Positions 1 to 23,845 of a stretch of 64,000 bases of DNA are shown in pieces. The stretch lies in sequence record KP869105; one strand, 5' to 3'. This stretch comes from Escherichia coli O157 typing phage 7. Made by a program: the position numbers and the translations under genes. Each line of letters starts with the position of its first letter. Position 1 is the first letter of the stretch. The notes under the pieces are model-generated. The model did no database searches, was not told the DNA's origin, and saw nothing but the letters and a program-made list of their open reading frames with translations.

Positions 1-3000
1 ACTAATGACTCATCCAAAATCACAGATAGTTTTAATTTTTAGTAATCGTCTGTGGCAAATGTATGTTGCTGATTATAGCAGAGAAGCGGCAGTTGTAACA
101 CCGGCAAGTCTTTATCAAGCGCAATCAAACGATTTTATCGTGTGTAGATTTACTTCTGCTTCAGCAATTAATATTAAACTTCCTAGATTTGCTAATCATG
201 GGGATATTATTAATTTTGTTGATTTAGATAAATTAAATCCGTTATATCATACTATCGTTACTACATACGATGAAACTACTTCTGTNNNNNNNNNNCGTAG
301 ATTTACTTCTGCTTCAGCAATTAATATTAAACTTCCTAGATTTGCTAATCATGGGGATATTATTAATTTTGTTGATTTAGATAAATTAAATCCGTTATAT
401 CATACTATCGTTACTACATACGATGAAACTACTTCTGTACAAGAAGTTGGAACTCATTCCATTGAAGGTCGTACATCTATTGATGGTTTCTTGATGTTTG
501 ATGATAATGAGAAATTGTGGAGATTGTTTGACGGGGATAGTAAAGCACGTTTACGCATTATAACGACTAATTCTAATATTCGTCCAAATGAAGAAGTCAT
601 GGTATTTGGCGCGAATAATGGAACAACCCAAACAATTGAACTTCAGCTTCCAACTGATATTTCTATCGGTGATACTGTTAAGATTTCCATGAATTATATG
701 AGAAAAGGACAAACAGTTAAAATCAAAGCTGCCGGTGAAGATAAAATTGCTTCTTCAGTTCAATTGCTGCAATTTCCAAAACGTTCAGAATACCCACCTG
801 AAACTAAATGGGTGACTGTTCAAGAATTAGTTTTTAATGGCGAAACCAATTATGTTCCAGTTTTACAGCTTGCTTATATCGAAGATTCTGACGGAAAATA
901 TTGGGTTGTACAGCAAAACGTTCCAACTGTAGAAAGAGTAGACTCTTTAAATAATTCTACTAGAGCAAGATTAGGGGTAATTGCTTTAGCTACACAAGCT
1001 CAAGCTAATGCTGATTTAGAAAATTCTCCACAAAAAGAATTGGCAATTACTCCAGAAACGTTAGCTAATCGTACTGCTACAGAAACTCGTAGAGGTATTG
1101 CAAGAATAGCAACTACTGCTCAAGTTAACCAGGATACTACATTCTCTTTTGCTGATGATATTATCATCACTCCTAAAAAGCTGAATGAAAGAACAGCTAC
1201 TGAAACTCGTAGGGGTGTCGCTGAAATTGCTACGCAACAGGAAACTAATACAGGTACTGATGATACGACAATCATCACTCCTAAAAAGCTTCAAGCTCGC
1301 CAAGGTTCTGAATCATTATCTGGTATTGTAACTTTTGTATCTACTGCAGGTGCTACTCCAGCTTCTAGCCGTGAATTAAATGGTACGAATGTTTATAATA
1401 AAAACACTAATAATTTAGTTGTTTCACCTAAAGCTTTGGATCAGTATAAAGCTACTCCAACACAGCAAGGTGCAGTAATTTTAGCAGTTGAAAGTGAAGT
1501 AATTGCTGGTCAAAGTCAAGAAGGATGGGCAAATGCTGTTGTAACTCCAGAAACGTTACACAAAAAGACATCAACTGATGGAAGAATTGGATTAATTGAA
1601 ATTGCTACGCAAAGTGAAGTTAATACAGGAACTGATTATACTCGTGCAGTCACTCCTAAAACTTTAAATGACCGTAGAGCAACTGAAAGTTTAAGTGGTA
1701 TAGCTGAAATTGCTACACAAGTTGAATTCGACGCGGGCGTCGACGATACTCGTATCTCTACACCATTAAAAATTAAAACCAGATTTAATAGTACTGATCG
1801 TACTTCTGTTGTTGCTCTATCTGGATTAGTTGAATCAGGAACTCTCTGGGACCATTATACCCTTAATATTCTTGAAGCAAACGAGACACAACGTGGTACA
1901 CTTCGTGTAGCTACACAAGTCGAAGCTGCTGCAGGAACATTAGATAATGTTTTAATAACTCCTAAAAAGCTTTTAGGTACTAAATCTACTGAAGCGCAAG
2001 AAGGTGTTATTAAAGTTGCAACACAAACCGAAACTGTTGCTGGTACATCATCTAATACTGCTGTATCTCCAAAGAATTTAAAATGGATCGTGCAGAGTGA
2101 ACCTACTTGGGCAGCTACTACTACAGTAAGAGGCTTTGTTAAAACTTCATCTGGTTCAATTACATTCGTTGGTAATGATACAGCCGGTTCTACTCAGGAC
2201 TTAGAGCTATACGAGAAAAATAGCTATGCAGTATCACCATACGAATTAAACCGTGTATTAGCAAATTATTTGCCATTAAAAGCAAAAGCTGCAGATAGTA
2301 ATTTATTGGATGGTCTAGATTCATCTCAGTTCATTCGTAGGGATATTGCACAGACGGTTAATGGTTCACTAACCTTAACCCAACAAACGAATCTGAGTGC
2401 CCCTCTTGTATCATCTAGTACTGCTACGTTTGGTGGATCAGTTTCGGCAAATAGTACATTAACTATTTCTAATACTGGAACGGCAACTCGTCTGATTTTT
2501 GAGAAAGGACCTCAAACTGGAACAAACCCAGCCCAAACGATGACTGTTAGAGTGTGGGGAAATCAATTTAGTGGGGAATTAGATACAACACGTTCTACCG
2601 TATTTGAAGTTAGTGATGAAACATCTAGTCATTTTTATTCTCAGCGCAATAAAGCTGGAAATATAACATTTAATATCAACGGTACAGTAACACCTATAAA
2701 TGTTAATGCTTCAGGAACATTGAATGCAAATGGTGTAGCAACATTTGGTAATTCAGTCACTGCAACTGGTGAAATTATTTCTCGAAGCGCAAATGCTTTC
2801 CGTGCTATTAACGGAAATTACGGTTTCATTGTTCGCAATGATGGATCAGTAACGAATTTTATGCTTACTGCATCGGGTGATCAGACTGGTGGATTTAATG
2901 GATTACGCCCATTAGCTATTAATAATGCATCTGGCCAAGTAACGATTGGTGAAAGCTTAATCATTGCCAAAGGTGCTACTATAAATTCAGGTGGTTTGAC

Positions 3001-3514
3001 TGTTAACTCGAGAATTCGTTCTCAAGGTACTAAAACATCTGACTTATATACACGTGCGCCAACATCTGATACTGTAGGATTCTGGTCAATTGATATTAAC
3101 GATTCAGCTACTTATAACCAGTTCCCAGGTTATTTTAAAATGGTTGAAAAAACTAATGAAGTGACTGGTCTTCCATATTTAGAACGTGGCGAAGAAGTTA
3201 AATCTCCTGGTACACTGACTCAGTTTGGTAACACACTTGATTCGCTTTACCAAGATTGGATTACTTATCCAACGACACCAGAAGCGCGTACCACTCGCTG
3301 GACACGTACATGGCAGAAAACCAAAAACTCTTGGTCAAGTTTTGTTCAGGTATTTGATGGAGGTAACCCTCCTCAGCCATCTGATATTGGTGCTTTACCA
3401 TCTGATAATGCTATAATGGGGAATCTTACTATTCGTGATTTCTTACGAATTGGTAATGTTCGCATTATTCCTGACCCAGTGAATAAAACTGTTAAATTTG
3501 AATGGGTTGAATAA
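1..3514 (+). CDS. 34: Long tail fibre proximal subunit gp34 (5' partial; gene continues upstream of window; contains N-gap and duplicated block at 144-438)
   Basis: ORF track 5..3514 and frame is open to position 1; translation matches remembered T4 gp34 C-terminal two-thirds including repeated TPKKL/ATE(T/S)RRG/IAT motifs; followed by genes 35-36-37 as in T4. Confidence 0.9.
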   Translation, partial: LMTHPKSQIVLIFSNRLWQMYVADYSREAAVVTPASLYQAQSNDFIVCRFTSASAINIKLPRFANHGDIINFVDLDKLNPLYHTIVTTYDETTSXXXXRRFTSASAINIKLPRFANHGDIINFVDLDKLNPLYHTIVTTYDETTSVQEVGTHSIEGRTSIDGFLMFDDNEKLWRLFDGDSKARLRIITTNSNIRPNEEVMVFGANNGTTQTIELQLPTDISIGDTVKISMNYMRKGQTVKIKAAGEDKIASSVQLLQFPKRSEYPPETKWVTVQELVFNGETNYVPVLQLAYIEDSDGKYWVVQQNVPTVERVDSLNNSTRARLGVIALATQAQANADLENSPQKELAITPETLANRTATETRRGIARIATTAQVNQDTTFSFADDIIITPKKLNERTATETRRGVAEIATQQETNTGTDDTTIITPKKLQARQGSESLSGIVTFVSTAGATPASSRELNGTNVYNKNTNNLVVSPKALDQYKATPTQQGAVILAVESEVIAGQSQEGWANAVVTPETLHKKTSTDGRIGLIEIATQSEVNTGTDYTRAVTPKTLNDRRATESLSGIAEIATQVEFDAGVDDTRISTPLKIKTRFNSTDRTSVVALSGLVESGTLWDHYTLNILEANETQRGTLRVATQVEAAAGTLDNVLITPKKLLGTKSTEAQEGVIKVATQTETVAGTSSNTAVSPKNLKWIVQSEPTWAATTTVRGFVKTSSGSITFVGNDTAGSTQDLELYEKNSYAVSPYELNRVLANYLPLKAKAADSNLLDGLDSSQFIRRDIAQTVNGSLTLTQQTNLSAPLVSSSTATFGGSVSANSTLTISNTGTATRLIFEKGPQTGTNPAQTMTVRVWGNQFSGELDTTRSTVFEVSDETSSHFYSQRNKAGNITFNINGTVTPINVNASGTLNANGVATFGNSVTATGEIISRSANAFRAINGNYGFIVRNDGSVTNFMLTASGDQTGGFNGLRPLAINNASGQVTIGESLIIAKGATINSGGLTVNSRIRSQGTKTSDLYTRAPTSDTVGFWSIDINDSATYNQFPGYFKMVEKTNEVTGLPYLERGEEVKSPGTLTQFGNTLDSLYQDWITYPTTPEARTTRWTRTWQKTKNSWSSFVQVFDGGNPPQPSDIGALPSDNAIMGNLTIRDFLRIGNVRIIPDPVNKTVKFEWVE
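144..438 (+). repeat. 142-bp perfect direct duplication flanking the N-gap (copy 144-285 and copy 297-438)
   Basis: Identical nucleotide strings on both sides of the N run; encoded peptide RFTSASAINIKLPRFANHGDIINFVDLDKLNPLYHTIVTTYDETTS appears twice. Confidence 0.9.
286..295. other. Run of 10 N (scaffold/assembly gap) inside gene 34
   Basis: Literal nnnnnnnnnn in sequence; gives XXXX in ORF translation. Confidence 1.
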
Positions 3515-3522
3515 GAGGTATT

Positions 3523-4638
3523 ATGGAAAAATTTATGGCAAAGTTTGGACAAGGATATGTCCAAACGCCATTTTTATCGGAAAGTAATTCAGTAAGATAT
3601 AAAATAAGTATAGCGGGTTCTTGCCCGCTTTCTACAGCAGGACCATATGTCAAATTTCAGGATAATCCTATCGGAAGTCAAACATTTAACGCAGGTCTTC
3701 ATTTAAGAGTTTTTGACCCTTCTACAGGAGCATTGGTTGATAGTAAGTCATATGTTTTTTCTACTTCAAATGATACAACATCTGCTGCTTTTGTTAGTTT
3801 CATGAACTCTTTGACGAATAATAGACTTGTTGCTATATTAACTAGCGGAAAGGTTAATTTTCCTCCTGAGGTAGTATCTTGGCTAAGAGTTGCGGGAACG
3901 TCTGCTTTTCCATCTGATTCTATATTGTCAAGATTTGACGTATCATATGCTGCCTTTTATACTTCTTCTAAAAGAGCTATTGCATTAGAACATGTTAAAC
4001 TGAGTAATAGAAAAAGCACAGATGATTATCAAACTATTTTAGATGTTGTATTTGACAGTTTAGAAGACGTTGGAGCTACCGGGTTTCCAAGAAGAACATA
4101 TGAAAGCGTTGAGCAGTTTATGTCAGCGGTTGGTGGAACTAATAACGAAATTGCACGTCTACCAACTTCATCCGCGATAAGTAAACTTTCTGACTACAAT
4201 TTAATTCCTGGCGATGTTCTTTATCTTAAAGCACAACTATATGCTGATGCCGATTTACTTGCTCTTGGAACTACAAATATATCCATCCGTTTTTATGATG
4301 AATCGGATGGATATATTTCTTCAACACATGCTGAGTTTACTGGACAAGCTGAGTCATGGGAATTAAAGGAAGACTATGTAGTTGTTCCTGAAAATGCAGT
4401 AGGATTTACGATATATGCACAAAGAACTGCACAAGCAGGTCAAGGTGGCATGAGGAATTTAAGTTTTTCTGAAGTATCAAGAAATGGCGGAATTTCAAAA
4501 CCTGCAGAATTTGGCGTCAATGGTATTCGAGTTAATTATGTCTGTGAATCTGCTTCACCTCCAGATATAATGGTATTTCCTACACAAGCATCGTCTAAAA
4601 CTGGTAAAGTGTTTGGACAAGAATTTAGAGAAGTTTAA
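3523..4638 (+). CDS. 35: Long tail fibre hinge connector gp35
   Basis: 371-aa ORF (T4 gp35 about 372 aa), sequence matches remembered T4 gp35 (MEKFMA.FGQGYVQTPFLSESNSVRYKISIAGSCPL...), RBS AAGAGG upstream, position between 34 and 36. Confidence 0.9.
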   Translation: MEKFMAKFGQGYVQTPFLSESNSVRYKISIAGSCPLSTAGPYVKFQDNPIGSQTFNAGLHLRVFDPSTGALVDSKSYVFSTSNDTTSAAFVSFMNSLTNNRLVAILTSGKVNFPPEVVSWLRVAGTSAFPSDSILSRFDVSYAAFYTSSKRAIALEHVKLSNRKSTDDYQTILDVVFDSLEDVGATGFPRRTYESVEQFMSAVGGTNNEIARLPTSSAISKLSDYNLIPGDVLYLKAQLYADADLLALGTTNISIRFYDESDGYISSTHAEFTGQAESWELKEDYVVVPENAVGFTIYAQRTAQAGQGGMRNLSFSEVSRNGGISKPAEFGVNGIRVNYVCESASPPDIMVFPTQASSKTGKVFGQEFREV

Positions 4639-4643
4639 ATTGA

Positions 4644-4670
4644 GGGAGCCTTCGGGTTCCCTTTTTCTTT
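4644..4670 (+). terminator. Stem-loop GGGAGCC-UUCG-GGUUCCC followed by U-run after gene 35
   Basis: 7-bp stem with UUCG tetraloop then TTTTTCTTT on plus strand. Confidence 0.6.
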
Positions 4671-4677
4671 ATAAATA
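4670..4677 (+). promoter_or_regulatory. T4 late promoter consensus TATAAATA upstream of gene 36
   Basis: Exact TATAAATA about 24 nt upstream of gene 36 ATG; gp55-dependent late promoter motif. Confidence 0.6.
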
Positions 4678-4700
4678 CTATTAAAATAAAGGGGCATACA

Positions 4701-5357
4701 ATGGCTGATTTAAAAGTAGGTTCAACAACCGGAGGCTCTGTCATTTGGCATCAAGGAAATTTTCCATTGAATCCAGCCGGTGACGATGTACTCTATAAAT
4801 CATTTAAAATATATTCAGAATATAATAAACCACAAGCTGCTGATAACGATTTCGTTTCTAAAGCTAATGGCGGTACTTATTTAAATAAAGTAATTTTTAA
4901 TAAAGGAATGACTGTTCCTGGCGCAGGGTCAGGTGATAATGGTATTTTTGCTGGTCCTGGTGATAGTGCCACGTATGATACTACAAATATGGATATTGTT
5001 TCGTGGTATGGTATTGGTTTTAAATCATCACAAGGAACAGCAGGTAGAACTGTAGTAATTAACACACGAAATGGAGATATTAGCTCAAAGGGCGTAATTG
5101 AAGCATCACAAATCCGTGTAACTTCGTTATCACCAGTAAATAATTATGACCTTACGCGGAAAGATTATGTTGATGGAGCAATAAATATTGTTACAGCAAA
5201 CGCAAACTCTAGGGTATTACGCTCTGGAGACACTATGACAGGAAATTTAACTGCGCCAAACCTTTTTTCACAGAATCCTGCATCTCAACCCTCGCATGTT
5301 CCACGATTTGACCAAATTGTTATTAAGGATTCTGTTCAAGATTTCGGCTATTATTAA
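4701..5357 (+). CDS. 36: Long tail fibre distal connector gp36
   Basis: 218-aa ORF (T4 gp36 about 221 aa), RBS AAAGGGG, synteny 35-36-37. Confidence 0.9.
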   Translation: MADLKVGSTTGGSVIWHQGNFPLNPAGDDVLYKSFKIYSEYNKPQAADNDFVSKANGGTYLNKVIFNKGMTVPGAGSGDNGIFAGPGDSATYDTTNMDIVSWYGIGFKSSQGTAGRTVVINTRNGDISSKGVIEASQIRVTSLSPVNNYDLTRKDYVDGAINIVTANANSRVLRSGDTMTGNLTAPNLFSQNPASQPSHVPRFDQIVIKDSVQDFGYY

Positions 5358-5365
5358 GAGGACTT

Positions 5366-8300
5366 ATGGCTACTTTAAAACAAATACAATTTAAAAGAAG
5401 CAAAACTGCAGGAGCACGTCCTGCCGCTTCAGTATTAGCCGAAGGTGAATTGGCTATAAACTTAAAAGACCGTGTACTTTTTACTAAAGATGACCAAGGA
5501 AATATTATTGATCTGGGTTTTGCTAAAGGCGGTAGTATTGACGGGAATGTTATTCATACAGGCAATTATAACCAAACTGGCGATTATACTTTAAATGGCA
5601 CATTCACTCAGACAGGTAATTTTAATTTAACTGGTATTGCTCGAGTAACTCGTGATATTATTGCCGCCGGGCAGATTATGACTGAAGGCGGAGAACTTAT
5701 TACAAAAAGTTCAGGTACAGCGCATGTTCGTTTTTTCGATGGCAATAGTCGCGAACGTGGAATCATTTATGCCCCGGCTAATGATGGTTTAACTACACAA
5801 GTACTTAATATCAGGGTTCAAGACTACGCCGCTGGTAGCGAAAGCACTTATGCATTTTCAGGCAGTGGCCTATTTACTTCACCTGAAGTATCAGCATGGA
5901 AATCTATTTCGTCTCCACAAATTCTGACCGATAAAGTTATTACAAATGGGAAGAAGACAGGCGATTATGACATCTATTCATTAGCAAATAACACCCCATT
6001 ATCTGAAAGCACTACTGCTATTAATCATCTTCGTGTCATGCGTAATGCCGTTGGTTCTGGTATTTTCCATGAAGTTAAAGATAATGATGGGATAACCTGG
6101 TATGCCGGTGACGGGTTGGAGGCTTATCTTTGGTCGTTTACGTGGTCCGGTGGGTTGAAAGCGGGTCATTCTATTTCTATAGGTACCCCAGGCGGTCCAA
6201 AAGGATATTCTGAATTAGGAACTGCTTCGATTGCTCTTGGTGATAATGACACCGGGTTAAAATGGCACCATGATGGATATTATTTCAGCGTCAATAATGG
6301 AACGAAAACATTTTTATTTAGTCCTAGCGAAACAACTAGCCTAAGAAAATTTGTAGCTGGATATTCTACTAACGGAACCGATTTAACTACTCCTCCGACT
6401 GAAAACTATGCTCTTGCTACTGTCGTGACATATCACGATAATAACGCGTTTGGAGATGGTCAAACTCTTTTAGGATATTATCAAGGCGGTAACTATCATC
6501 ACTATTTCCGCGGTAAGGGTACCACAAACATTAATACTCATGGCGGTTTGTTAGTTACTCCAGGTAATATTGACGTTATTGGTGGTTCTGTTAATATCGA
6601 TGGTAGAAATAATTCTTCTACACTGATGTTTAGAGGTAACACAACTGGTAGTAGTTCAGTTGATAATATGACAATTTCCGTTTGGGGCAATACGTTTACT
6701 AATCCTAGTGAAGGTACCCGTAAAAATGTTATGGAAATTTCTGATGCAACTAGCTGGATGAGCTATATTCAACGAACAACTGCAGGTAAAGTTGAATCGG
6801 TTATAAATGGCACCCAGATTGTTAATGAAAACTTGACCGTAGTAAAAAATGCTACATTTGATGGTACAATCAGCGCAGCAGGTGAAATTTCATCTGGTGC
6901 AGTGAATGCGCTTCGCATTTGGAACGCAGATTATGGAGCCATTTTTAGACGTTCAGAAGGTAGTCTTCATATTATTCCAACTGCTTATGGTGAAGGCAAA
7001 AATGGTGATATCGGTCCACTTCGCCCGTTTAGTATGGCTTTAGATACTGGTAAAGTTACTATTCCAGATTTACAATCAAGTTACAATACGTTTGCTGCTA
7101 ACGGTTATATTAAATTTGTTGGTCATGGAGCGGGTGCAGGTGGTTATGATATTCAGTATTCACAAGCTGCTCCTATTTTCCAAGAAATCGATGATGCTGC
7201 TGTAAGCAAATATTATCCTATTGTTAAACAGAAGTTTTTAAATGGTAAAGCTGTCTGGTCTTTGGGTACTGAAATTAATTCAGGTACATTTGTTTTACAT
7301 CATTTGAAAGAAGATGGTTCACAAGGCCATACATCAAGATTTAATGCTGATGGTACAGTTAATTTCCCCGATAATGTTCAAGTCGGCGGCGGTGAAGCTA
7401 CTATTGCTAGAAACGGTAATATCTTCTCTGATATTTGGAAAACATTTACTTCTGCCGGAGATACTACAAATATTCACGATGCGATAGCTACTCGTGTTGC
7501 CAAAGAAGGCGATACGATGACTGGCAAATTAATCGTTAGAAGAGGCTCTGACGCTATTAACATTGCTGCCGATGAAAATGATTCTTGCTATTTACTTGGA
7601 ACATCGGGTGGAGCGAATTCATGGTACATCGGTAAAGGAGGAGCAGATGACACTGCTTCATTTTATAATTTCAAAACTACCGCAGGAATTACTCTTAATA
7701 GTGTTGGTGATATTGATTTTAACGTCAAAAATCAAGCTACTGCAGCTTCATTAAATTTTTATCGTTTATATTTAAATGGAAGACAATGGACAGCTACACA
7801 AGGTCACGGCTATAATAATCAATGGCAAACAGAAGCCCCATTCTTCGTTGACTTTGGTGAATCTGTTCCGAAAGATAGTTATATGCCTATAATTAAAGGA
7901 AGAAGCCAAATCATTAACGAAGGATATGCCACAAAGGCAGATTTTGGTATTATTCGATTGGGTGGAAATGCTACTTGGGGAAATGCAGTAATTCGTGTTG
8001 GTTCTGCGGAAAGCGGAGATAGCAGTCATCCTAATGCAATATTTGTGTTTCAGGCTAATGGTGATTTTAAAGCTCCGGCTGGCCTTCGTGCTGGTGTTAA
8101 CTTGGGCGTCGGCACAATTCCAGTATGGGGCGGAGCATCTATCGCCATCGGGGATGATGATACCGGTTTAGTTCATGGCGGCGATGGTCGAATTAATATG
8201 TATGCTAACTCGCAGCATATAGCATCATGGGGCACGATGTATCAATCTCATCCAGGCCTTTGGGATTCAAATGGAGCTTTTTGGACAGAAGTTGGCAAAG

Positions 8301-9567: not shown

Positions 9568-10224
9568 ATGGCAGCACCTAGAATATCATTTTCGCCCTCT
9601 GATATTCTATTTGGTGTTCTAGATCGCTTGTTCAAAGATAACGCTACCGGGAAAGTTCTTGCTTCCCGGGTAGCTGTCGTAATTCTTTTATTTATGATGG
9701 CGATTGTTTGGTATAGGGGAGATAGTTTCTTTGAGTACTATAAGCAATCAAAGTATGAAACATACAGTGAAATTATTGAAAAGGAAAGAAACGCACGCTT
9801 TGAATCTGTCGCCCTGGAACAACTCCAGATAGTTCACATATCATCTGAGGCAGACTTTAGTGCGGTGTATTCTTTCCGCCCTAAAAACTTAAACTATTTT
9901 GTTGATATTATAGCATATGAAGGAAAATTACCTTCAACAATAAGTGAAAAATCACTTGGAGGATATCCTGTTGATAAAACTATGGATGAATATACAGTTC
10001 ATTTAAATGGACGTCATTATTATTCCAACTCAAAATTTGCTTTTTTACCAACTAAAAAGCCTACTCCCGAAATAAACTACATGTACAGTTGTCCATATTT
10101 TAATTTGGATAACATCTATGCTGGAACAATAACCATGTACTGGTATAGAAATGATCATATAAGTAATGACCGCCTTGAATCAATATGTTCTCAGGCGGCC
10201 AGAATATTAGGAAGGGCTAAATAA
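9568..10224 (+). CDS. t: Holin t
   Basis: 218-aa ORF identical in length to T4 holin and matching remembered sequence (MAAPRISFSPSDILFGVLDRLFKDNATGKVLASR...); strong RBS AAAGGAGGG. Confidence 0.95.
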   Translation: MAAPRISFSPSDILFGVLDRLFKDNATGKVLASRVAVVILLFMMAIVWYRGDSFFEYYKQSKYETYSEIIEKERNARFESVALEQLQIVHISSEADFSAVYSFRPKNLNYFVDIIAYEGKLPSTISEKSLGGYPVDKTMDEYTVHLNGRHYYSNSKFAFLPTKKPTPEINYMYSCPYFNLDNIYAGTITMYWYRNDHISNDRLESICSQAARILGRAK

Positions 10225-10497
10225 TTATTTGTTTGTATACATCTCTAGATATCGATATACACCCTCAAAACCCTCGTTGAATTCGTCGATGAGGGTTTTC
10301 TTATCTTCTTGGGTTAATTCAGAAACAATTTTACGGAATGAATTCTGATTTAATTTTCTACCTTCATGCGTTACTCCAATCTCATTCAGAAATGCAATAA
10401 AATTAGCACGATTCTCAACAATATCTTCTCTGGAAAATTTAATCAAAATAGACGCAACAGTAATAATTTCACGAACTGTATCAATATTTTTATTCAT
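10225..10497 (-). CDS. asiA: Anti-sigma-70 protein AsiA
   Basis: 90-aa ORF matching remembered T4 AsiA (MNKNIDTVREIITVASILIKFSREDIVENRANFIAFLNEIGVTHEGRKL...). Confidence 0.95.
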   Translation of the reverse strand: MNKNIDTVREIITVASILIKFSREDIVENRANFIAFLNEIGVTHEGRKLNQNSFRKIVSELTQEDKKTLIDEFNEGFEGVYRYLEMYTNK

Positions 10498-13079: not shown

Positions 13080-13229
13080 TTACTGCATGACTGTGATAAC
13101 TGTCATGATAACACGTTGAATTCCGAACGCAAGAAGACCTCCTGCTACGGCTGGAACAACACCTAAACCCGCCAGTAAAATGCTACCAGATACTAATGCA
13201 GCGCTTGTAATACCTATGAATGGACTCAT
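13080..13229 (-). CDS. Small hydrophobic ORF (49 aa) between 52 and motA (motA.1-like)
   Basis: Manually translated MSPFIGITSAALVSGSILLAGLGVVPAVAGGLLAFGIQRVIMTVITVMQ; ATG overlaps gene 52 stop (ATGA). Confidence 0.4.
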   Translation of the reverse strand: MSPFIGITSAALVSGSILLAGLGVVPAVAGGLLAFGIQRVIMTVITVMQ

Positions 13230-14554
13230 TTGATTTCCTCTAAATCTTTGGTGTATTCTGTAACTACATCAGTAGTTTTCCAATATTCGTTTTCTTCTTT
13301 TTTGGCTTTAGCTTCTTCAGCAAGTTTCTTCGCTTCATCGGAAGTCATATGAAAAATATTCATTCCGACTAGTTTATCAACATAAGAAGAATACATCTCA
13401 ATTTTAGAAAGTTCTTCGGTCAGTTCTTTGCGAGTTTTACCCTGTACAACAATTTCACCTGAAATTACTTTCTTAATGAAATGCGCCTTGGCAAAGGCTA
13501 AACGAAATGCTGACTCAGTTTCTTTGATTTTGTTATCAATTCGTTTTTGGACATAAGTTTTACGAACTTCAACAAAGTCTTTAATTAAATCGACTACGTT
13601 ATCGTAAACTTGTAGTTTTCCTTTCTCATTAATAACCGTAATATTCTGAGAACGACGCTCAATCAACCCGAAGTCTTTCATAATTTTTGCATGACGTTCT
13701 TCTTCATTATCGCTCAAAGAATATTCTTTGCGGAATTTAACTTTGAATCCAAAACCATGCTCACCACAAGCATCATCCCATGTAATGAAGCCTTTATCTT
13801 CAAGTGGGTCTAAGATTTTACTCACATAAGTTTCACGATCATACTTATACGGAATCTCAGTGATATGCATTTGAGTTCGTGAAGTAAACTTATATGTTCC
13901 ACGAATTTCATATTGCCCATCAATTTCAACGACTTCACCACGAAATTCTGGGAATTCTACCTTCGGTTTAGTTACTTTCTTTCCTTGAAGAGCTTGTAGT
14001 ACAGCTTTCTTGACAGAAGAAACGCTATGAGGAAGAATGTAAGTTGCATAACCAGTTGCAATACCGGAAACGCCATTAAGAAGAACAGTAGGAATAATAG
14101 GCAAATAGAAAGCAGGCGGAATGTGTTCTTTATCTTGATGTACCGGAGCATATTCAGTATCTTTATATACGTTATAGAAATTTTTACTTACACGAGCAAA
14201 AATATAACGACTTGCTGCTGCCTTTTGGACAGTACGAGAACCAAAGTTTCCTTGACCATCTAACAGAGGAAAGTTATTATTCCAAGTGTTAGCCATCAAA
14301 GCACCTGCGTCTTGTGCAGAGTTTTCGCCATGATGATATCCAAGGTCCGCTACACCGCCTGCGATAGAAGCGAGTTTGTGAAACTTATCTTTATTTCCTC
14401 GTGCCAAATCAAGAGCTCGAGCAATAACAAATCGTTGAACTGGCTTAAATCCATCAATCATATTTGGAATAGCACGATTTTCAACCGTGTACATAGCATA
14501 AGCCAATGCTTCATTATCAATGATACTTTTTAAATCGCGATTATTCAGTTGCAT
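13226..14554 (-). CDS. 52: DNA topoisomerase II medium subunit gp52 (GyrA-like)
   Basis: 442-aa ORF, same length as T4 gp52; GyrA-type N-terminus with PVQRFVIARALDL motif. Confidence 0.95.
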   Translation of the reverse strand: MQLNNRDLKSIIDNEALAYAMYTVENRAIPNMIDGFKPVQRFVIARALDLARGNKDKFHKLASIAGGVADLGYHHGENSAQDAGALMANTWNNNFPLLDGQGNFGSRTVQKAAASRYIFARVSKNFYNVYKDTEYAPVHQDKEHIPPAFYLPIIPTVLLNGVSGIATGYATYILPHSVSSVKKAVLQALQGKKVTKPKVEFPEFRGEVVEIDGQYEIRGTYKFTSRTQMHITEIPYKYDRETYVSKILDPLEDKGFITWDDACGEHGFGFKVKFRKEYSLSDNEEERHAKIMKDFGLIERRSQNITVINEKGKLQVYDNVVDLIKDFVEVRKTYVQKRIDNKIKETESAFRLAFAKAHFIKKVISGEIVVQGKTRKELTEELSKIEMYSSYVDKLVGMNIFHMTSDEAKKLAEEAKAKKEENEYWKTTDVVTEYTKDLEEIK

Positions 14555-18692: not shown

Positions 18693-20870
18693 TTAGGCCG
18701 CAAGGGCCTTCATAGTTTTAGCGATTTGGGAAACTTCATCATCACTTAAAGAATTGCGATAACCGATGAAGTCGGAAACAATACGGAATTTCTTGGTAAA
18801 CTCAGCAACCATTTTATCACTGTTTTTTGAAGCATTATTTGATAATACATCAAAAAGATTAGTTACCGTCCAGATGTCATGACCGATGGTATCTTTTCCA
18901 CCATTAAAATATACACCGCGCAATGAACTAACTATATTAGCGAGTCGTGTATATTCTTCAGAAACTTCATCTGTACTGAAGTACTTCATCATAAAATCTA
19001 GCTCAGGATACTTGATAATTTTATCAATATATCGTTGAGCTGAACTTGAATAACCTACATACTTATCATAATCTACATCATCAAAAGCATCTACATATAA
19101 ATCACGCAAAGCTTCAAAAATACATTGGCACTGACCGAGTTCTTTTACCTTTTTCTGTAAAAGCGGACGAATAACATAAAATTCATTAATGCCAATAAGA
19201 TTAGCCATACGAATCAAAATATTCATAGATGGATGACAAAGTGATGTAGTACCATCCATAGAGAAAATATCAGAACGATGCATATACGCTACATAACCAG
19301 TAATTTCATCTGCTTCTGACGTAAGTGTAAATAGTTCCTCTTTTTCCCAACGCCCATCTTTAATTTCAAATTTAAATGCTGTAGCAGCTTTAGGACGAGG
19401 AGCTTTACTTTTAACTACCTTTGGAATATAGCTTTTAACTAAAGTTTCAATTTCTGACAGATAATGAATGTTAACTTCATCACTTTCAAACATTGCCATA
19501 ATATCAGGTAGTAAATCAATCTGCGATTCTACTTCCGGATTAATAAACAGAAGACGCTCATTGTGATGAATATTCAAAGTGTTATTAAATTCACTATCAT
19601 CTAGCGCATGTGCTAATCCACGGACAATATTAACACGATTTTTAATATTATCAATAACGATATTAATTTTTGTTGTATTAATACCAAACAGACGATAACT
19701 TGATGCAACGGCTGAAGTTTCATGACTTTGCTTAATGCGTTTCAGTCGAGGGTCAAGATTTACTTCATACACCACGCCTGCATTACATAACTTACTGTCA
19801 GGTTCAAACATGCTCTGCATCTTTTTATATGACAGATTTTTAGTCGTGAATTTGACTGAATTACTAATCATATAATCTCGAGCAGAATACCCCATCTTCA
19901 TCAATTCACGATATGTGTGACGGGGAGATGTAGATTCTTTAAATCGTTTTACATCTTCATTAAATGCTTTCTCACTAAGCTCTTTAACTCGTTCAATAAT
20001 ATTTTTACGAGTACGATCATCCAATGAAAGAGCTTCACGTGATGGAGCAATATCAAGTGAACCCATTGGAAACTTAATGTAATTCACTTCATTGCGAATG
20101 CTTAGCCAGTTACGGTCTCTAATAACGCCATCGATAGGATAAACAATACCGCCATAGATAGCATATAATCCACCACGATCAGGCCAGTATCTTTCTGGAT
20201 TTACACCGTAATAATCATCAAAATCCGGAAAATAATCAATTTCACGGTCAAGACCATTAATAATAGCCAAATCTTTGAACGGTCGCATGATATAAGAAAC
20301 TTCATAAGCAAAGTTTCTAAAGTCTTTTTCTTCAACTGGAACTACGATTTCAATACCAGTTTTATCATCTGGACCCATTTCTTTTACGAATGTAGGTTTA
20401 ATCTGTGGGCCATCACCATCCATGTAAGCTACATAACCACGAATTTCACCTTTATGATACGAAGTAATACTAAACGTATCAGTATAACTAAACGGAGATT
20501 TAGAACCTAAACCAAATCCGCCAATGAAATCGTTAGATTCAGCCTTAGATGAACTGAAGTATGAATTATACAAACCAGGAGAATTATCATCACCCTGAAT
20601 ATCAAAATCACTCATACCCGGACCAAAATCTCGGCAAACAAATCGTGGATCTAAACGTCCAGGAACTTGAATGATAAATTTTTCAGGATTTCCATTGAGA
20701 GCATGGGCATCAATCATGTTGGTAATCAATTCACGAACAACTGCGCGAATTTTGTTTGTATACAAATCAGATGACAGAATTTTAAATACTTTAGGAGATG
20801 CTGTGATGCTAAATGCTTTTGATTTAGAACCATTACCAAGAATTGTTTCTTTTTCAGTGGTGATAATCAT
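18693..20870 (-). CDS. rIIA: rIIA protein (GHKL ATPase-like)
   Basis: 725-aa ORF, identical length to T4 rIIA; N-terminal ATPase motifs ([17 protein letters not shown]). Confidence 0.95.
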
Positions 20871-20880
20871 AATTTCCTCA

Positions 20881-21084
20881 TTAATTCATATTACGCTTAA
20901 TAACTTCAGCAACTTCTAGTAGTTCATCTTTAGTTGCGGTGTCGGATTGAATTTTATCTCTAATATCTTTAAAGCGGTTTTTAAATTCTTCGGCTTCTCC
21001 CATATCGAAAAAGCGTTGAATGATTCTATATTCTCGATGAACTGCTTTATCAAAAAGTTCTAAATTTACTTTATATGATTTCAT
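20881..21084 (-). CDS. Hypothetical protein (rIIA.1-like)
   Basis: 67-aa ORF directly upstream of rIIA with RBS. Confidence 0.6.
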
Positions 21085-21109
21085 TCCAATATCCTCATTT
21101 GCCCAATTA

Positions 21110-21139
21110 ATTATACCACATCCTTGTGGTAAAGTAAAC
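21110..21139 (-). promoter_or_regulatory. T4-type early promoter upstream of rIIA.1/rIIA
   Basis: Minus strand GTTTAC-N18-TATAAT; -35 overlaps gene 39 stop codon. Confidence 0.6.
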
Positions 21140-22956
21140 TACTGGCTCATCCATTCTTTACGAAGGTCAGCATTATCTCCCATGAGCATTTCAAAAAGCT
21201 CTTTCCAGTTCTCAGGAAGTTTAACAACATCATATACTGGATTTTGAATCATCTCACGATATTCAGATTTTTCCAAAGAGCCAAGTCCCTTAATATAACG
21301 GATGCTATGTTTAGGTAGAGCATCTTTAGCACTCTCATATTCAGCGACTGTATAAAACCATTCTTGTTTTTTACCGACCTGGGCGATGATTACAGGAGTT
21401 TTGACAAAGCGAATTCGTCCTTGCTCAAACAATTCTGGCCAATTACTAAAAAATCCGAGCAGAGAAGGATAAATGCTTCCTAAACCATCATGGTCAGCAT
21501 CGGTCATAATAGCAATATTATGATAATTCAAGTTTTCAGCTTTTTCACCAAGAACTAATCCAGTGATTGCGCAAATATCAAATAGTTCTTTGTTTTTAAG
21601 CATATCAGCATATGACATACCCCAACTATTGAGAACTTTACCACGCAATGGATAACCACCGTGAAGTTCTTTATCACGAACATCAATAAGATATCCGATA
21701 GCCGAATCACCCTCAGTCAAGAAAAGAGTAGTATCAGCATCTTTACCGCAAAGATTCGCTTTGATATGTTTATGAACCTTAGCTTTAGAAGCCTTTTTAG
21801 CTGCTTTAGTTTCTGCTGCTTTTTCTGCCGCTAATTTACGAGCCAAGGCAGCTTCAATAATTGGCATTAAAATTGCTTCATTGTTTAAAATAGCGCGTGA
21901 AATCTTTTTAGCATCAAGTTGAATATGACTACGAATTTCACCAAATGGAGAAGTCAAACGCTCTTTAGTTTGAGAATCAAATCGCATGTTTTTCATATCA
22001 CGAACAAACATAACGATAGTCAAACATTCTTTAACACGTGCTTTAGTTACATCAATTTTGAACTTACGTTTGATTTGTGGAATAAGGTCTTCACAAATAT
22101 CATCCATAACACAGTCAATGTGATGGCCACCATTCTTAGTATGAATGTTATTGACGTACGTCAACTGACGAAAACCATCCGGTGAACGACCAACCGCAAT
22201 AGAACAATTTTCTTGTTCTTGAACGATAGCATGTTCATCATACTGTCGTGCATATTTCTTAAAATTGCCCTGAACCTTTTTACCATTAAAGGTAAATTGA
22301 ATATCAGGATAAACAACAGCAAGTGTCTGGAGACGATCTAATGTAATGTCAAGATAAACTTGGGACAGCTCATTAGTTTCAAATGACATAAAATCAGGAA
22401 TGAAAGTAACACGAGTTCCTTTCCATTTTCCAGGAATATCTTCCCATGATTTATTTTCCATGCCATTTGAACAACGAACTACAATATTATTTTGACCATC
22501 ACCAGTTTCACCAACAAACATCACAGAAAAAATGTTTGTCAAACTAGAACCAACACCGTTCATACCGCCAGTGACGCGTTCTTTATCATCACCGAAGTTA
22601 CCACCTGCTTTTGGAATAGTCCATGCGGCAACAGGACCAGGAATTTCTTCACCGGTAGGTGTTTTAACCATCGCTTGTGGAATACCACGACCGTTATCTT
22701 CAACTGTTACCTGATTATTTTTAATGGTAACATTAATTTTATTCGCGAATTTAAACTTAGTACGAATACCTTCATCGACTGAGTTATCGATAATTTCATC
22801 AATAAGCTTAACAAGACCAGGTACATACTGAACACTTTCCCATTTACCAAACAGAAAGCGCTCATGCATTTCATTAGCAGAAGAGCCAATATACATGCCG
22901 CTACGCTTTTTGATATGTTCAATATCGCTCAGAATTTTAATTTCATTCTTAATCAT
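21139..22956 (-). CDS. 39: DNA topoisomerase II large subunit gp39, uninterrupted (equivalent to T4 gp39 plus gp60)
   Basis: ORF track 606 aa (GTG) trimmed to ATG 22956 with GAGGA RBS giving 605 aa; GyrB-type ATPase N-terminus and TOPRIM/C-terminal region in one reading frame. Confidence 0.9.
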   Translation of the reverse strand: MIKNEIKILSDIEHIKKRSGMYIGSSANEMHERFLFGKWESVQYVPGLVKLIDEIIDNSVDEGIRTKFKFANKINVTIKNNQVTVEDNGRGIPQAMVKTPTGEEIPGPVAAWTIPKAGGNFGDDKERVTGGMNGVGSSLTNIFSVMFVGETGDGQNNIVVRCSNGMENKSWEDIPGKWKGTRVTFIPDFMSFETNELSQVYLDITLDRLQTLAVVYPDIQFTFNGKKVQGNFKKYARQYDEHAIVQEQENCSIAVGRSPDGFRQLTYVNNIHTKNGGHHIDCVMDDICEDLIPQIKRKFKIDVTKARVKECLTIVMFVRDMKNMRFDSQTKERLTSPFGEIRSHIQLDAKKISRAILNNEAILMPIIEAALARKLAAEKAAETKAAKKASKAKVHKHIKANLCGKDADTTLFLTEGDSAIGYLIDVRDKELHGGYPLRGKVLNSWGMSYADMLKNKELFDICAITGLVLGEKAENLNYHNIAIMTDADHDGLGSIYPSLLGFFSNWPELFEQGRIRFVKTPVIIAQVGKKQEWFYTVAEYESAKDALPKHSIRYIKGLGSLEKSEYREMIQNPVYDVVKLPENWKELFEMLMGDNADLRKEWMSQ

Positions 22957-22983
22957 CACTTATCCTCGTTTGGTTTCGGGAAT

Positions 22984-23009
22984 ATTATACTCCGGCAATC
23001 ATAAAGCTA
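22984..23009 (-). promoter_or_regulatory. Middle-promoter-like element (MotA-box AGCTTTA, 12-bp spacer, TATAAT) upstream of gene 39
   Basis: Minus strand TTAGCTTTATGATTGCCGGAGTATAAT; no GTTTAC -35. Confidence 0.45.
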
Positions 23010-23010
23010 A

Positions 23011-23024
23011 AGGCCCGAAGGCCT
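23011..23024 (-). terminator. Hairpin AGGCC-UUCG-GGCCU
   Basis: GC stem with tetraloop flanked by A/T runs. Confidence 0.4.
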
Positions 23025-23025
23025 T

Positions 23026-23295
23026 TTATTTAAAACGAATAGTTGAATCCTTAAAGAACAGCCCAGAACATACTGTTCCTTCTACTTTCTGCCCAGTAGG
23101 TCCAATAGCACGAAATCCAGTATGTTGGAAATCATTTTCAGAGCAACCGAACCAGTTATATCCAGTGATTTCAATATTCGTAAAACCACTCGATGATAAA
23201 ATTTTAGTTGCATTATCAGCATCAGTACATCCTACTAAAGATACTGCTAATACTAATGCTGCAATAGAACGATTAATATATTTCATAGTTTTCAC
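23026..23295 (-). CDS. Putative lipoprotein (signal peptide with LVGC lipobox)
   Basis: 89-aa ORF MKTMKYINRSIAALVLAVSLVGCTDA... Confidence 0.6.
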   Translation of the reverse strand: MKTMKYINRSIAALVLAVSLVGCTDADNATKILSSSGFTNIEITGYNWFGCSENDFQHTGFRAIGPTGQKVEGTVCSGLFFKDSTIRFK

Positions 23296-23666
23296 TTAAA
23301 TTTAATGGCTTGAAGGAGACTAATAATTCTCAAACGGCTTCTTTCATCTTTAACTGTAAAAGAAAGAGGGTCGCCAGATTTCATAGTGATAGTGCATTCA
23401 AAATCAAAATCTTCAGGAACTTCTTCGAAGAAGTCAAATTCTTCATCATAAATTAGAACTTCACTCCGCAGACTGTGAAGAATTTTTCCAGCATTTCTGC
23501 TAGTTGCTGTACTAATCATTGTAACATTATGACCTTTCATATCTTCAACGATAAATTCGCTTGTAGATATTACGGCATTAATAGAACCATTCCTATTACT
23601 AGCAGAAAGTAGATATTTCTTTTCTTCACCTTCGCGAACACGATATTTCTTACCGATTTTAAACAT
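23292..23666 (-). CDS. Hypothetical protein
   Basis: ORF track 23292..23672 (GTG) trimmed to ATG 23666. Confidence 0.55.
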   Translation of the reverse strand: MFKIGKKYRVREGEEKKYLLSASNRNGSINAVISTSEFIVEDMKGHNVTMISTATSRNAGKILHSLRSEVLIYDEEFDFFEEVPEDFDFECTITMKSGDPLSFTVKDERSRLRIISLLQAIKFK

Positions 23667-23668
23667 AA

Positions 23669-23845
23669 TCACCCTTTAAGTAAATCGTAAAAACCGCCAT
23701 TCACATGCTTAGGAGCAGAAGGCCGACGAGTAGACAAACGATGACATTTAGGGCAAACATCATTTTCTCGTTCAGAAATCTTTTTAATTTTTTCATATTC
23801 ATGCCCGCAATCTTCGGATTGGCATTTATAATCATACATTGGCAT
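23669..23845 (-). CDS. Small zinc-ribbon protein (FmdB-like, 58 aa)
   Basis: Manually translated MPMYDYKCQSEDCGHEYEKIKKISERENDVCPKCHRLSTRRPSAPKHVNGGFYDLLKG; CxxxxC...CxxC; below ORF-track cutoff. Confidence 0.5.
   Translation of the reverse strand: MPMYDYKCQSEDCGHEYEKIKKISERENDVCPKCHRLSTRRPSAPKHVNGGFYDLLKG

Follow-up and report, generated by a model that had tools for sequence, protein, structure and literature searches.

The topoisomerase locus of Escherichia coli O157 typing phage 7 (KP869105) raises the question of whether a gene 39 that runs uninterrupted, where T4 carries gene 39, mobA and gene 60, was never split, was split and later restored, or is only apparently continuous. We analysed the locus within a 64,000-nt stretch of the phage DNA (the window). 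We conclude, with a probability of about 97%, that the window holds the intact, never-invaded ('parental') gene 39 of a wV7-like Tequatrovirus.

The mechanical ORF list places this gene at 21139..22959 on the minus strand, with a GTG start and 606 aa. We set the start at its second codon, the ATG at 22956 (MIKNEIKILSDIEH…), because the N-terminus encoded from there, MIKNEIK…, is that of T4, T2 and T6 gp39. The CDS is then 21139..22956, minus strand, with 605 codons followed by a stop at 21139-21141, which is terminal and the only one in frame. The 1.8-kb gene is 96-100% identical to its counterparts in hundreds of phage records, so the match reflects homology and not chance. The gene and its downstream neighbours are as follows.

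21139..22956, minus strand: unsplit gene 39, encoding the type II DNA topoisomerase large (GyrB-like ATPase plus TOPRIM) subunit, 605 aa (ORF, Pfam, alignment to the T6 gp39 structure, wV7 CDS)
21085..21138, minus strand: spacer between gene 39 and rIIA.1, 54 nt (sequence)
20881..21084, minus strand: rIIA.1, 67 aa, immediately downstream of gene 39 (Pfam T4_RIIA1, E=1.4e-33)
18693..20870: rIIA, beyond rIIA.1 (ORF list)

The sequence-only reading had described one continuous ORF of about 605 aa at 21139-22956, equivalent to gp39 plus gp60 and followed directly by rIIA.1; the 605 codons, their two-part BLASTP match to T4 (below) and the position of rIIA.1 after the spacer bear it out. The interval 20870-23000 is filled entirely by rIIA.1, the spacer and gene 39, with no room for a further gene. 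A consensus scan of the spacer returned a sigma-70-like promoter, TTTACT-17-TATAAT (10/12, TG extended), which is a consensus match only. Between 39.1 and 39.2 lies a 126-aa ORF (23292..23672) that is absent from T4.

As the T4 reference we used NC_000866, positions 1-8000 with their annotation. T4 and the window agree in the flanking genes and in the 54-nt length of the spacer before rIIA.1. The annotated T4 order, however, is rIIA, rIIA.1, gene 60, 60.1/mobA, gene 39, and the two parts of gene 60 are annotated as a join that skips 2803-2852, a 50-nt 'non-coding translational bypass region'. In BLASTP, residues 1-473 of the window protein match T4 gp39 1-473 (466/473 identical, 99%) and residues 472-605 match T4 gp60 27-160 (128/134 identical, 96%), the alignment being collinear throughout. 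Relative to T4, the gene falls into these segments.

21538..22956, minus strand: codons 1-473, collinear with T4 gp39 1-473, all before the T4 insertion point (BLASTP and DNA HSP)
21484..21537, minus strand: codons 474-491 (ENLNYHNIAIMTDADHDG), the 'parental' segment, in place of which T4 has the cassette's diverged copy, HomR (nucleotide comparison)
21481..21489, minus strand: codons 490-492, GAT GGT TTA (D-G-L), the exact T4 hop position, contiguous here (codon-by-codon comparison)
21142..21483, minus strand: codons 492-605, collinear with T4 gp60 47-160, the post-hop part (BLASTP and DNA HSP)

The last codon in common with T4 before the insertion is that of Ala473, GCT at 21540-21538. At the DNA level, window 23287..21539 aligns with T4 5660..3911 at 96.3% identity and window 21487..20800 with T4 2806..2119 at 98.5%; between them, window 21530..21485 aligns with T4 2899..2854 at 76% only, and about 1 kb of T4 (3910..2900) has no window counterpart. 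These breakpoints define T4 3910..2900 as an insertion relative to the window. The ~1-kb insert, placed after codon 473, encodes a 43-aa gp39 tail, mobA (its product in T4T, MobA, has 272 aa) and, for gp60, a 30-aa head. Next in T4 come 46 nt that repeat the displaced codons in diverged form, and after these the 50-nt gap; the window has none of the three. Neither the last 43 residues of T4 gp39 (FEEKEDGEW…RKNL) nor the first ~30 residues of T4 gp60 (MKFVKIDSSSVDMKKYKLQNNVRRSIKSSS) have a counterpart in the window. Separately, residues 326-328 of the T4 reference gp39 read 'LIR' where the window and T4T both have 'FDS', a compensated single-base indel pair in the old reference.

The bypass features of T4 comprise a take-off GGA, a UAG, a stem-loop, a 50-nt gap and a landing GGA. 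At the hop position T4 reads …GAT CAC GAT GGA [TAG CCTTCGGGCTATC…TTATTGGA] TTA GGT TCT…, whereas the window reads …GAC CAT GAT GGT TTA GGA AGC… (D-H-D-G-L-G-S), with GGT as its glycine codon. Codon comparison thus finds no take-off GGA and no UAG at this position, where GAT GGT TTA runs through without a stop. Allowing up to 3 mismatches, the hairpin motif GGATAGCCTTCGGGCTATC does not occur anywhere in the 64-kb window, and neither the take-off stem-loop (GGAUAGCCUUCGGGCUAUC) nor the 50-nt gap with its matched landing GGA emerged from the 64-kb motif search and the DNA alignment. RNA folding around the site revealed no take-off hairpin (-16.4 kcal/mol, z=-0.56), while the fold of the T4 segment recovered the stem-loop known at the take-off site (z=-2.2). 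Missing as well is the nascent-peptide signal that T4 gp60 carries at its N-terminus (KKYKLQNNVRRSIKSSS): tblastn of the 30-aa NTE against the 64 kb gave chance matches only (E>=0.3), and where the T4 gp60 N-terminal extension would stand, the window reads …GEKAENLNYHN…. A hidden hop, stop or frameshift was considered and rejected, as none is seen at the codon level or by RNA folding.

For the cassette itself, the query was the intact 272-aa MobA protein from phage T4T. Its best tblastn match in all 64 kb has an E value of 3.1, which is chance level. The insert-encoded gp39 CTE and gp60 NTE were not found in the window by tblastn either, and the T4T insert returned only chance-level hits in blastn-short; across these 64-kb cassette searches the best E values were 0.3 to 5 and the matching words 13-17 nt long. 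With the MobA, CTE/NTE, insert DNA and hairpin searches of the 64 kb all yielding chance matches only, relocation of the cassette to another place in the window was rejected. So was an endonuclease hidden in a different frame: of the alternative-frame ORFs in 20870-23000, the five longest (71-134 aa) have no Pfam match at E<=0.1, and no HNH or GIY-YIG domain was found by Pfam in alternative-frame ORFs of 20670-23300, in a search whose positive control, T4T MobA, itself stayed below threshold (HNH, 20.1 bits against a cutoff of 21.4). Because this control is weak, the tblastn negative is the stronger evidence for the absence of mobA. The sequence-only reading had seen neither a gene 60 bypass element nor a mobA insertion here, and had named GIY-YIG/HNH ORFs and a hidden stop or hop as the things to look for; on both counts it stands.

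The extent of the missing DNA agrees with what is known of the element elsewhere. According to Manning & Atkins (bioRxiv 10.1101/2022.08.31.505936), the MobA element measures 1097-1106 nt, enters Topo2L at aa 466-473 and has its far end immediately behind D490/G491. With it come a ~44-aa CTE and a 44-45-aa NTE, while 55-75 nt of the host gene are lost; in their place stands a 'HomR' belonging to the element, 67-81% identical to them, and behind it the bypass cassette. Every clade also has 'parental' genomes that are 96-99% identical and lack the element (same source). The breakpoints found here match this element exactly: codon 473 is the last in common, HomR is 76% identical and the insert stops after G491.

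Codons 474-491 bear on the polarity of the difference. In the window the junction, aa 466-491, is contiguous, and 53/54 nt over codons 474-491 are those of T2 (1/54 mismatches; 3/54 against T6), whereas the comparison with T4 HomR gives 11/46 mismatches. A segment that matches T2 and T6 and not HomR argues for an uninvaded version without a scar; it is the mark of the genomes that Manning & Atkins class as 'parental'. That the unsplit allele would be the 'parental' one or, as the sequence-only reading put it, 'ancestral', is well supported; we infer it from the sequence pattern and the literature.

The opposite history would be that an ancestor carried the MobA/bypass cassette and that the unsplit gene is a reversion, through precise deletion or through gene conversion in which an uninvaded phage infecting the same cell was the donor. 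T-even phages do recombine freely, and 'hit and run' traces are described for some clades, as is loss of the endonuclease or of the cassette (bioRxiv 10.1101/2022.08.31.505936). Were such a loss to have happened here, the gene would record a 'hit-and-run' homing cycle instead of the ancestral state. Yet the gene bears no scar and no trace of the CTE or NTE, the sequence at codons 474-491 is the parental one of T2/T6 and not HomR, and the identity of the flanks is uniform with that of hundreds of unsplit relatives. Conversion of the whole tract would look the same as never having been invaded and adds nothing to the account. Since codons 474-491 are parental and scarless, secondary loss is unnecessary, and we regard it as very unlikely.

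The closest relatives point to the same parental gene. Among the comparison records (T2, AP018813; T6, AP018814; wV7, NC_019505/HM997020), T2 and T6 have a gene 39 CDS of 1818 nt, of the same length and relative position as in the window, within the same neighbourhood of 39.1 – 39 – rIIA.1 – rIIA and with identical catalytic motifs. T2 gp39 shows 96.9% nucleotide identity and one amino acid difference (F70L), T6 gp39 about 96.8% (96.75%) and two differences (D173T and Q526H); what separates these genes from that of the window is synonymous or near-synonymous polymorphism only. The arrangement is therefore T2/T6-like, as claimed from the letters alone. Escherichia phage wV7 is closer still: its F412_gp271 is 100% identical in nucleotides over the 1818-nt gene and the 2.5 kb around it, and is annotated 'DNA topoisomerase II large subunit; Gp60plus39; similar to RB32'. 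The match to wV7 is likewise 100% over window 39001-64000. As both the gene and this long tract coincide, the phage is, by its sequence, a wV7-like Tequatrovirus (the taxonomy line of the record gives the species as 'Tequatrovirus vtec') and not T4, which the sequence-only reading had likewise excluded. The wV7 record lacks 86 nt present at window 10194-10279, the t/asiA junction. A scaffold join of 10 N at 286-295, inside gene 34 and with 143 nt of duplicated sequence, also sets the window apart from it, and the possibility that the window is simply the wV7 record was rejected on these two grounds.

Could the continuity of gene 39 mask a frameshift, stop or hop, or reflect an assembly error? 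A 10-N join between duplicated contig ends is a mark of draft-style assembly, but it lies 20 kb from gene 39, whose 1818 nt are 100% identical to the independent wV7 record. The length is that of the T2 and T6 genes, there is no internal stop, a solved structure can be aligned along the whole protein, and the same contiguous junction recurs in 454 independent records. Hidden recoding or an artefact is thus so improbable as to be negligible, far more so than secondary loss.

The frequency of the two states was obtained with a 201-nt junction query (window 21420-21620) spanning both insertion boundaries, coverage of >=80% being taken as contiguous. The junction is contiguous in 454/498 matching phage records (~91%); the rest, including T4, match on one side only. 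With the T4 insert plus gap as a 1108-nt query, 43 phage records were found to bear the cassette, among them T4 strains, RB55, RB59, HY01, HY03, vB_EcoM_112 and others. An earlier count of 521 records at >=80% coverage was discarded as unreliable, as it had joined separate BLAST pieces into one place. The unsplit gene 39 is thus the majority state and the T4 split the exception. Being the majority arrangement, the unsplit state is diagnostic of very little; nor is the split state unique to T4, as some cassette-bearing phages are not T4 strains.

Together, the data fit a model in which a ~1.1-kb MobA homing-endonuclease cassette entered gene 39 after codon 473 in T4 and a minority of its relatives, splitting the gene and bringing along its own recoded copy of codons ~476-491 and the 50-nt bypass gap. 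In this model the phage studied here kept the uninvaded gene, decoded by ordinary triplet translation. Its locus is a textbook case of an unoccupied site for a homing-endonuclease cassette. MobA nicking of T2 and high-frequency inheritance of the cassette in mixed infection were reported by Bonocora et al. (2011), as cited in bioRxiv 10.1101/2022.08.31.505936, where the nick site is placed within the HomR segment, to which codons 474-491 of the window gene correspond. Given its near-identity to the nicked T2 site, the allele is presumably a MobA-sensitive homing target, and we predict that, in a mixed infection with T4-type phages, MobA would nick it and the split hop form would take its place.

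In practical terms, gene 39 should be annotated as a single CDS without programmed bypass, and the phage typed as wV7-like and not as T4. The unsplit arrangement is already known: it is annotated in wV7 ('Gp60plus39'), and the literature describes it both as a target for MobA homing and as the 'parental' allele. Its 96-99% identical flanks make the locus a useful comparator for the exact extent of the MobA and bypass DNA, though for many phages this comparison is already in print, and beyond correct annotation its significance is small.

The encoded protein has the makeup of a complete subunit. Pfam places HATPase_c at aa 47-149 (E=2e-9), DNA_gyraseB (transducer) at aa 250-384 (E=1.4e-13) and TOPRIM_C at aa 519-604. 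A motif search of the translation, together with Pfam for the partner gene, located the following.

22684..22797, minus strand: GHKL N-box EIIDNSVDE, aa 54-62, and G1 box DNGRG, aa 87-91
22549-22566, minus strand: GHKL G2 box GMNGVG, aa 131-136
21964..21972, minus strand: QTK loop of the transducer domain, aa 329-331
21700-21714, minus strand: TOPRIM EGDSA, aa 415-419
21484-21501, minus strand: TOPRIM DADHDG, aa 486-491
13226..14554, minus strand: gene 52, for the GyrA-like subunit that cleaves DNA and partners gp39 (Pfam DNA_topoisoIV, E=1e-76)

The hallmarks of a B-type subunit of a type IIA topoisomerase are all present, namely the GHKL boxes, the QTK transducer, a TOPRIM domain on a single chain, collinearity with a characterised member and an encoded A-type partner. 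The stretch around gene 52 matches wV7 at 100%, and wV7 has gp52 annotated at those very coordinates. The window protein aligns with chain 8ylu_C of the T6 gp39 cryo-EM structure over 1-605 on 1-605 (1385 bits, E=0) and likewise over 1-605 with the further T6 gp39 structures 8yo1, 8yo5, 8yo7, 8yod and 8yon, while against an artificial T4 gp39-gp60 fusion (8yo3) it aligns in two pieces. Gene 39 encodes a complete GyrB-like subunit as one 605-residue chain of GHKL ATPase, transducer with QTK loop, and TOPRIM.

T4 departs from this layout. Its TOPRIM domain is split between gp39 and gp60 (PMC11461880), with the EGDSA-type motif in gp39 and the DADHDG-type motif in gp60; the insertion site lies inside TOPRIM, between the catalytic Glu and DxDxD, and the hop comes directly after DADHDG. 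In the window both motifs, the catalytic Glu and the metal-binding DxD(xD), are on one polypeptide. Topo II of T2 and T6 is built from two types of subunit and that of T4 from three (PMC11461880). By analogy with T6, gp39 and gp52 would make up a type IIA topoisomerase of the two-subunit type, probably an A2B2 enzyme as in T2 and T6, in contrast to the three-subunit type of T4; its activity is likely to be ATP-dependent relaxation, as suggested by the T6 Topo II assays (PMC11461880), T6 gp39 being 2 aa from the window protein. The cellular type IIA counterparts are GyrB, ParE and the N-terminal half of eukaryotic Topo II; human Topo II alpha and beta, yeast Topo II, ParE and GyrB show full-length similarity to the window gp39 (E 1e-59 to 1e-36) and the same domain order of GHKL, transducer and TOPRIM. 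The phage protein is more compact than these, and its phmmer scores put ParE and eukaryotic Topo II closer to it than GyrB.

Gene 39 of the window is preceded by two open reading frames and by short sequence elements.

Features upstream of gene 39 (window coordinates)
23292-23672, minus strand: 126-aa ORF between 39.1 and 39.2, corresponding to F412_gp269 ('RB32orf5c') of Escherichia phage wV7
23026-23295, minus strand: 39.1 homologue, 89 aa from a GTG start (86 aa in the wV7 annotation)
23012-23023, minus strand: GC hairpin GGCCTTCGGGCC, followed by TTT, just upstream of gene 39; read by eye
23002-23008 and 22984-22989, minus strand: AGCTTTA and TATAAT, separated by a 12-nt spacer, 3' of the GC hairpin; read by eye

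T4 has no gene between 39.1 and 39.2, whereas the window carries the 126-aa ORF there, and ORFs of 105 aa and 123 aa occupy the same position in T2 and T6, respectively. As read from these sequences, the 39.1/39.2 interval is a small variable slot adjoining the topoisomerase gene. Pfam searches returned no match for either the 126-aa ORF or the 39.1 homologue. The N-terminus of the latter, MKTMKYINRSIAALVLAVSLVGC, looks like the signal peptide of a lipoprotein, LVGC being the apparent lipobox. The AGCTTTA/TATAAT element resembles by eye a T4 MotA-dependent middle promoter; a sigma-70 and terminator scan flagged neither this element nor the hairpin.

A run of 10 Ns at 286-295 lies inside gene 34, which encodes the proximal subunit of the long tail fibre, and the 143 nt on its 5' side (143-285) are duplicated on its 3' side (296-438), as when overlapping contig ends are scaffolded unmerged. 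The N-run and the 143-nt repeat thus mark the window as a draft-style assembly rather than the finished record of wV7. The start of the gene 34 ORF at position 5 is only apparent, an artefact of the scaffold join. The wV7 record lacks 86 nt found at window 10194-10279, which take in the t/asiA junction together with the 3' end of t, the holin gene, and its annotated 220-aa holin reads through and overlaps asiA. Because the window holin (9568..10224) has 218 aa, as in T4-like phages, a deletion or assembly error at t/asiA in the wV7 record is probable.

Directly before the conserved QTK loop, the gp39 sequence around residues 326-328 (window 21973-21981) is MRFDSQTK in the window, T2, T6, and phage T4T, but MRLIRQTK in the T4 reference (NC_000866). 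The T4 reference DNA there has one T missing and one G added nine bases further, a compensated frameshift whose most likely cause is an old error in the sequencing of NC_000866/AF158101. Gene 39.1 is annotated shorter in the T4 reference (5398-5595) than in T4T (5387-5647). In the mobA region, the T4 reference has 1108 nt in place of the 1097 nt present in the majority of cassette-bearing phages, T4T, RB55, and RB59 among them. Its annotation lists mobA as '60.1' together with a 114-nt fragment; MobA of T4T, in contrast, is intact (272 aa). These mobA differences agree with the literature, in which the mobA copy of the laboratory T4 reference is pseudogenised or differs by inserts.
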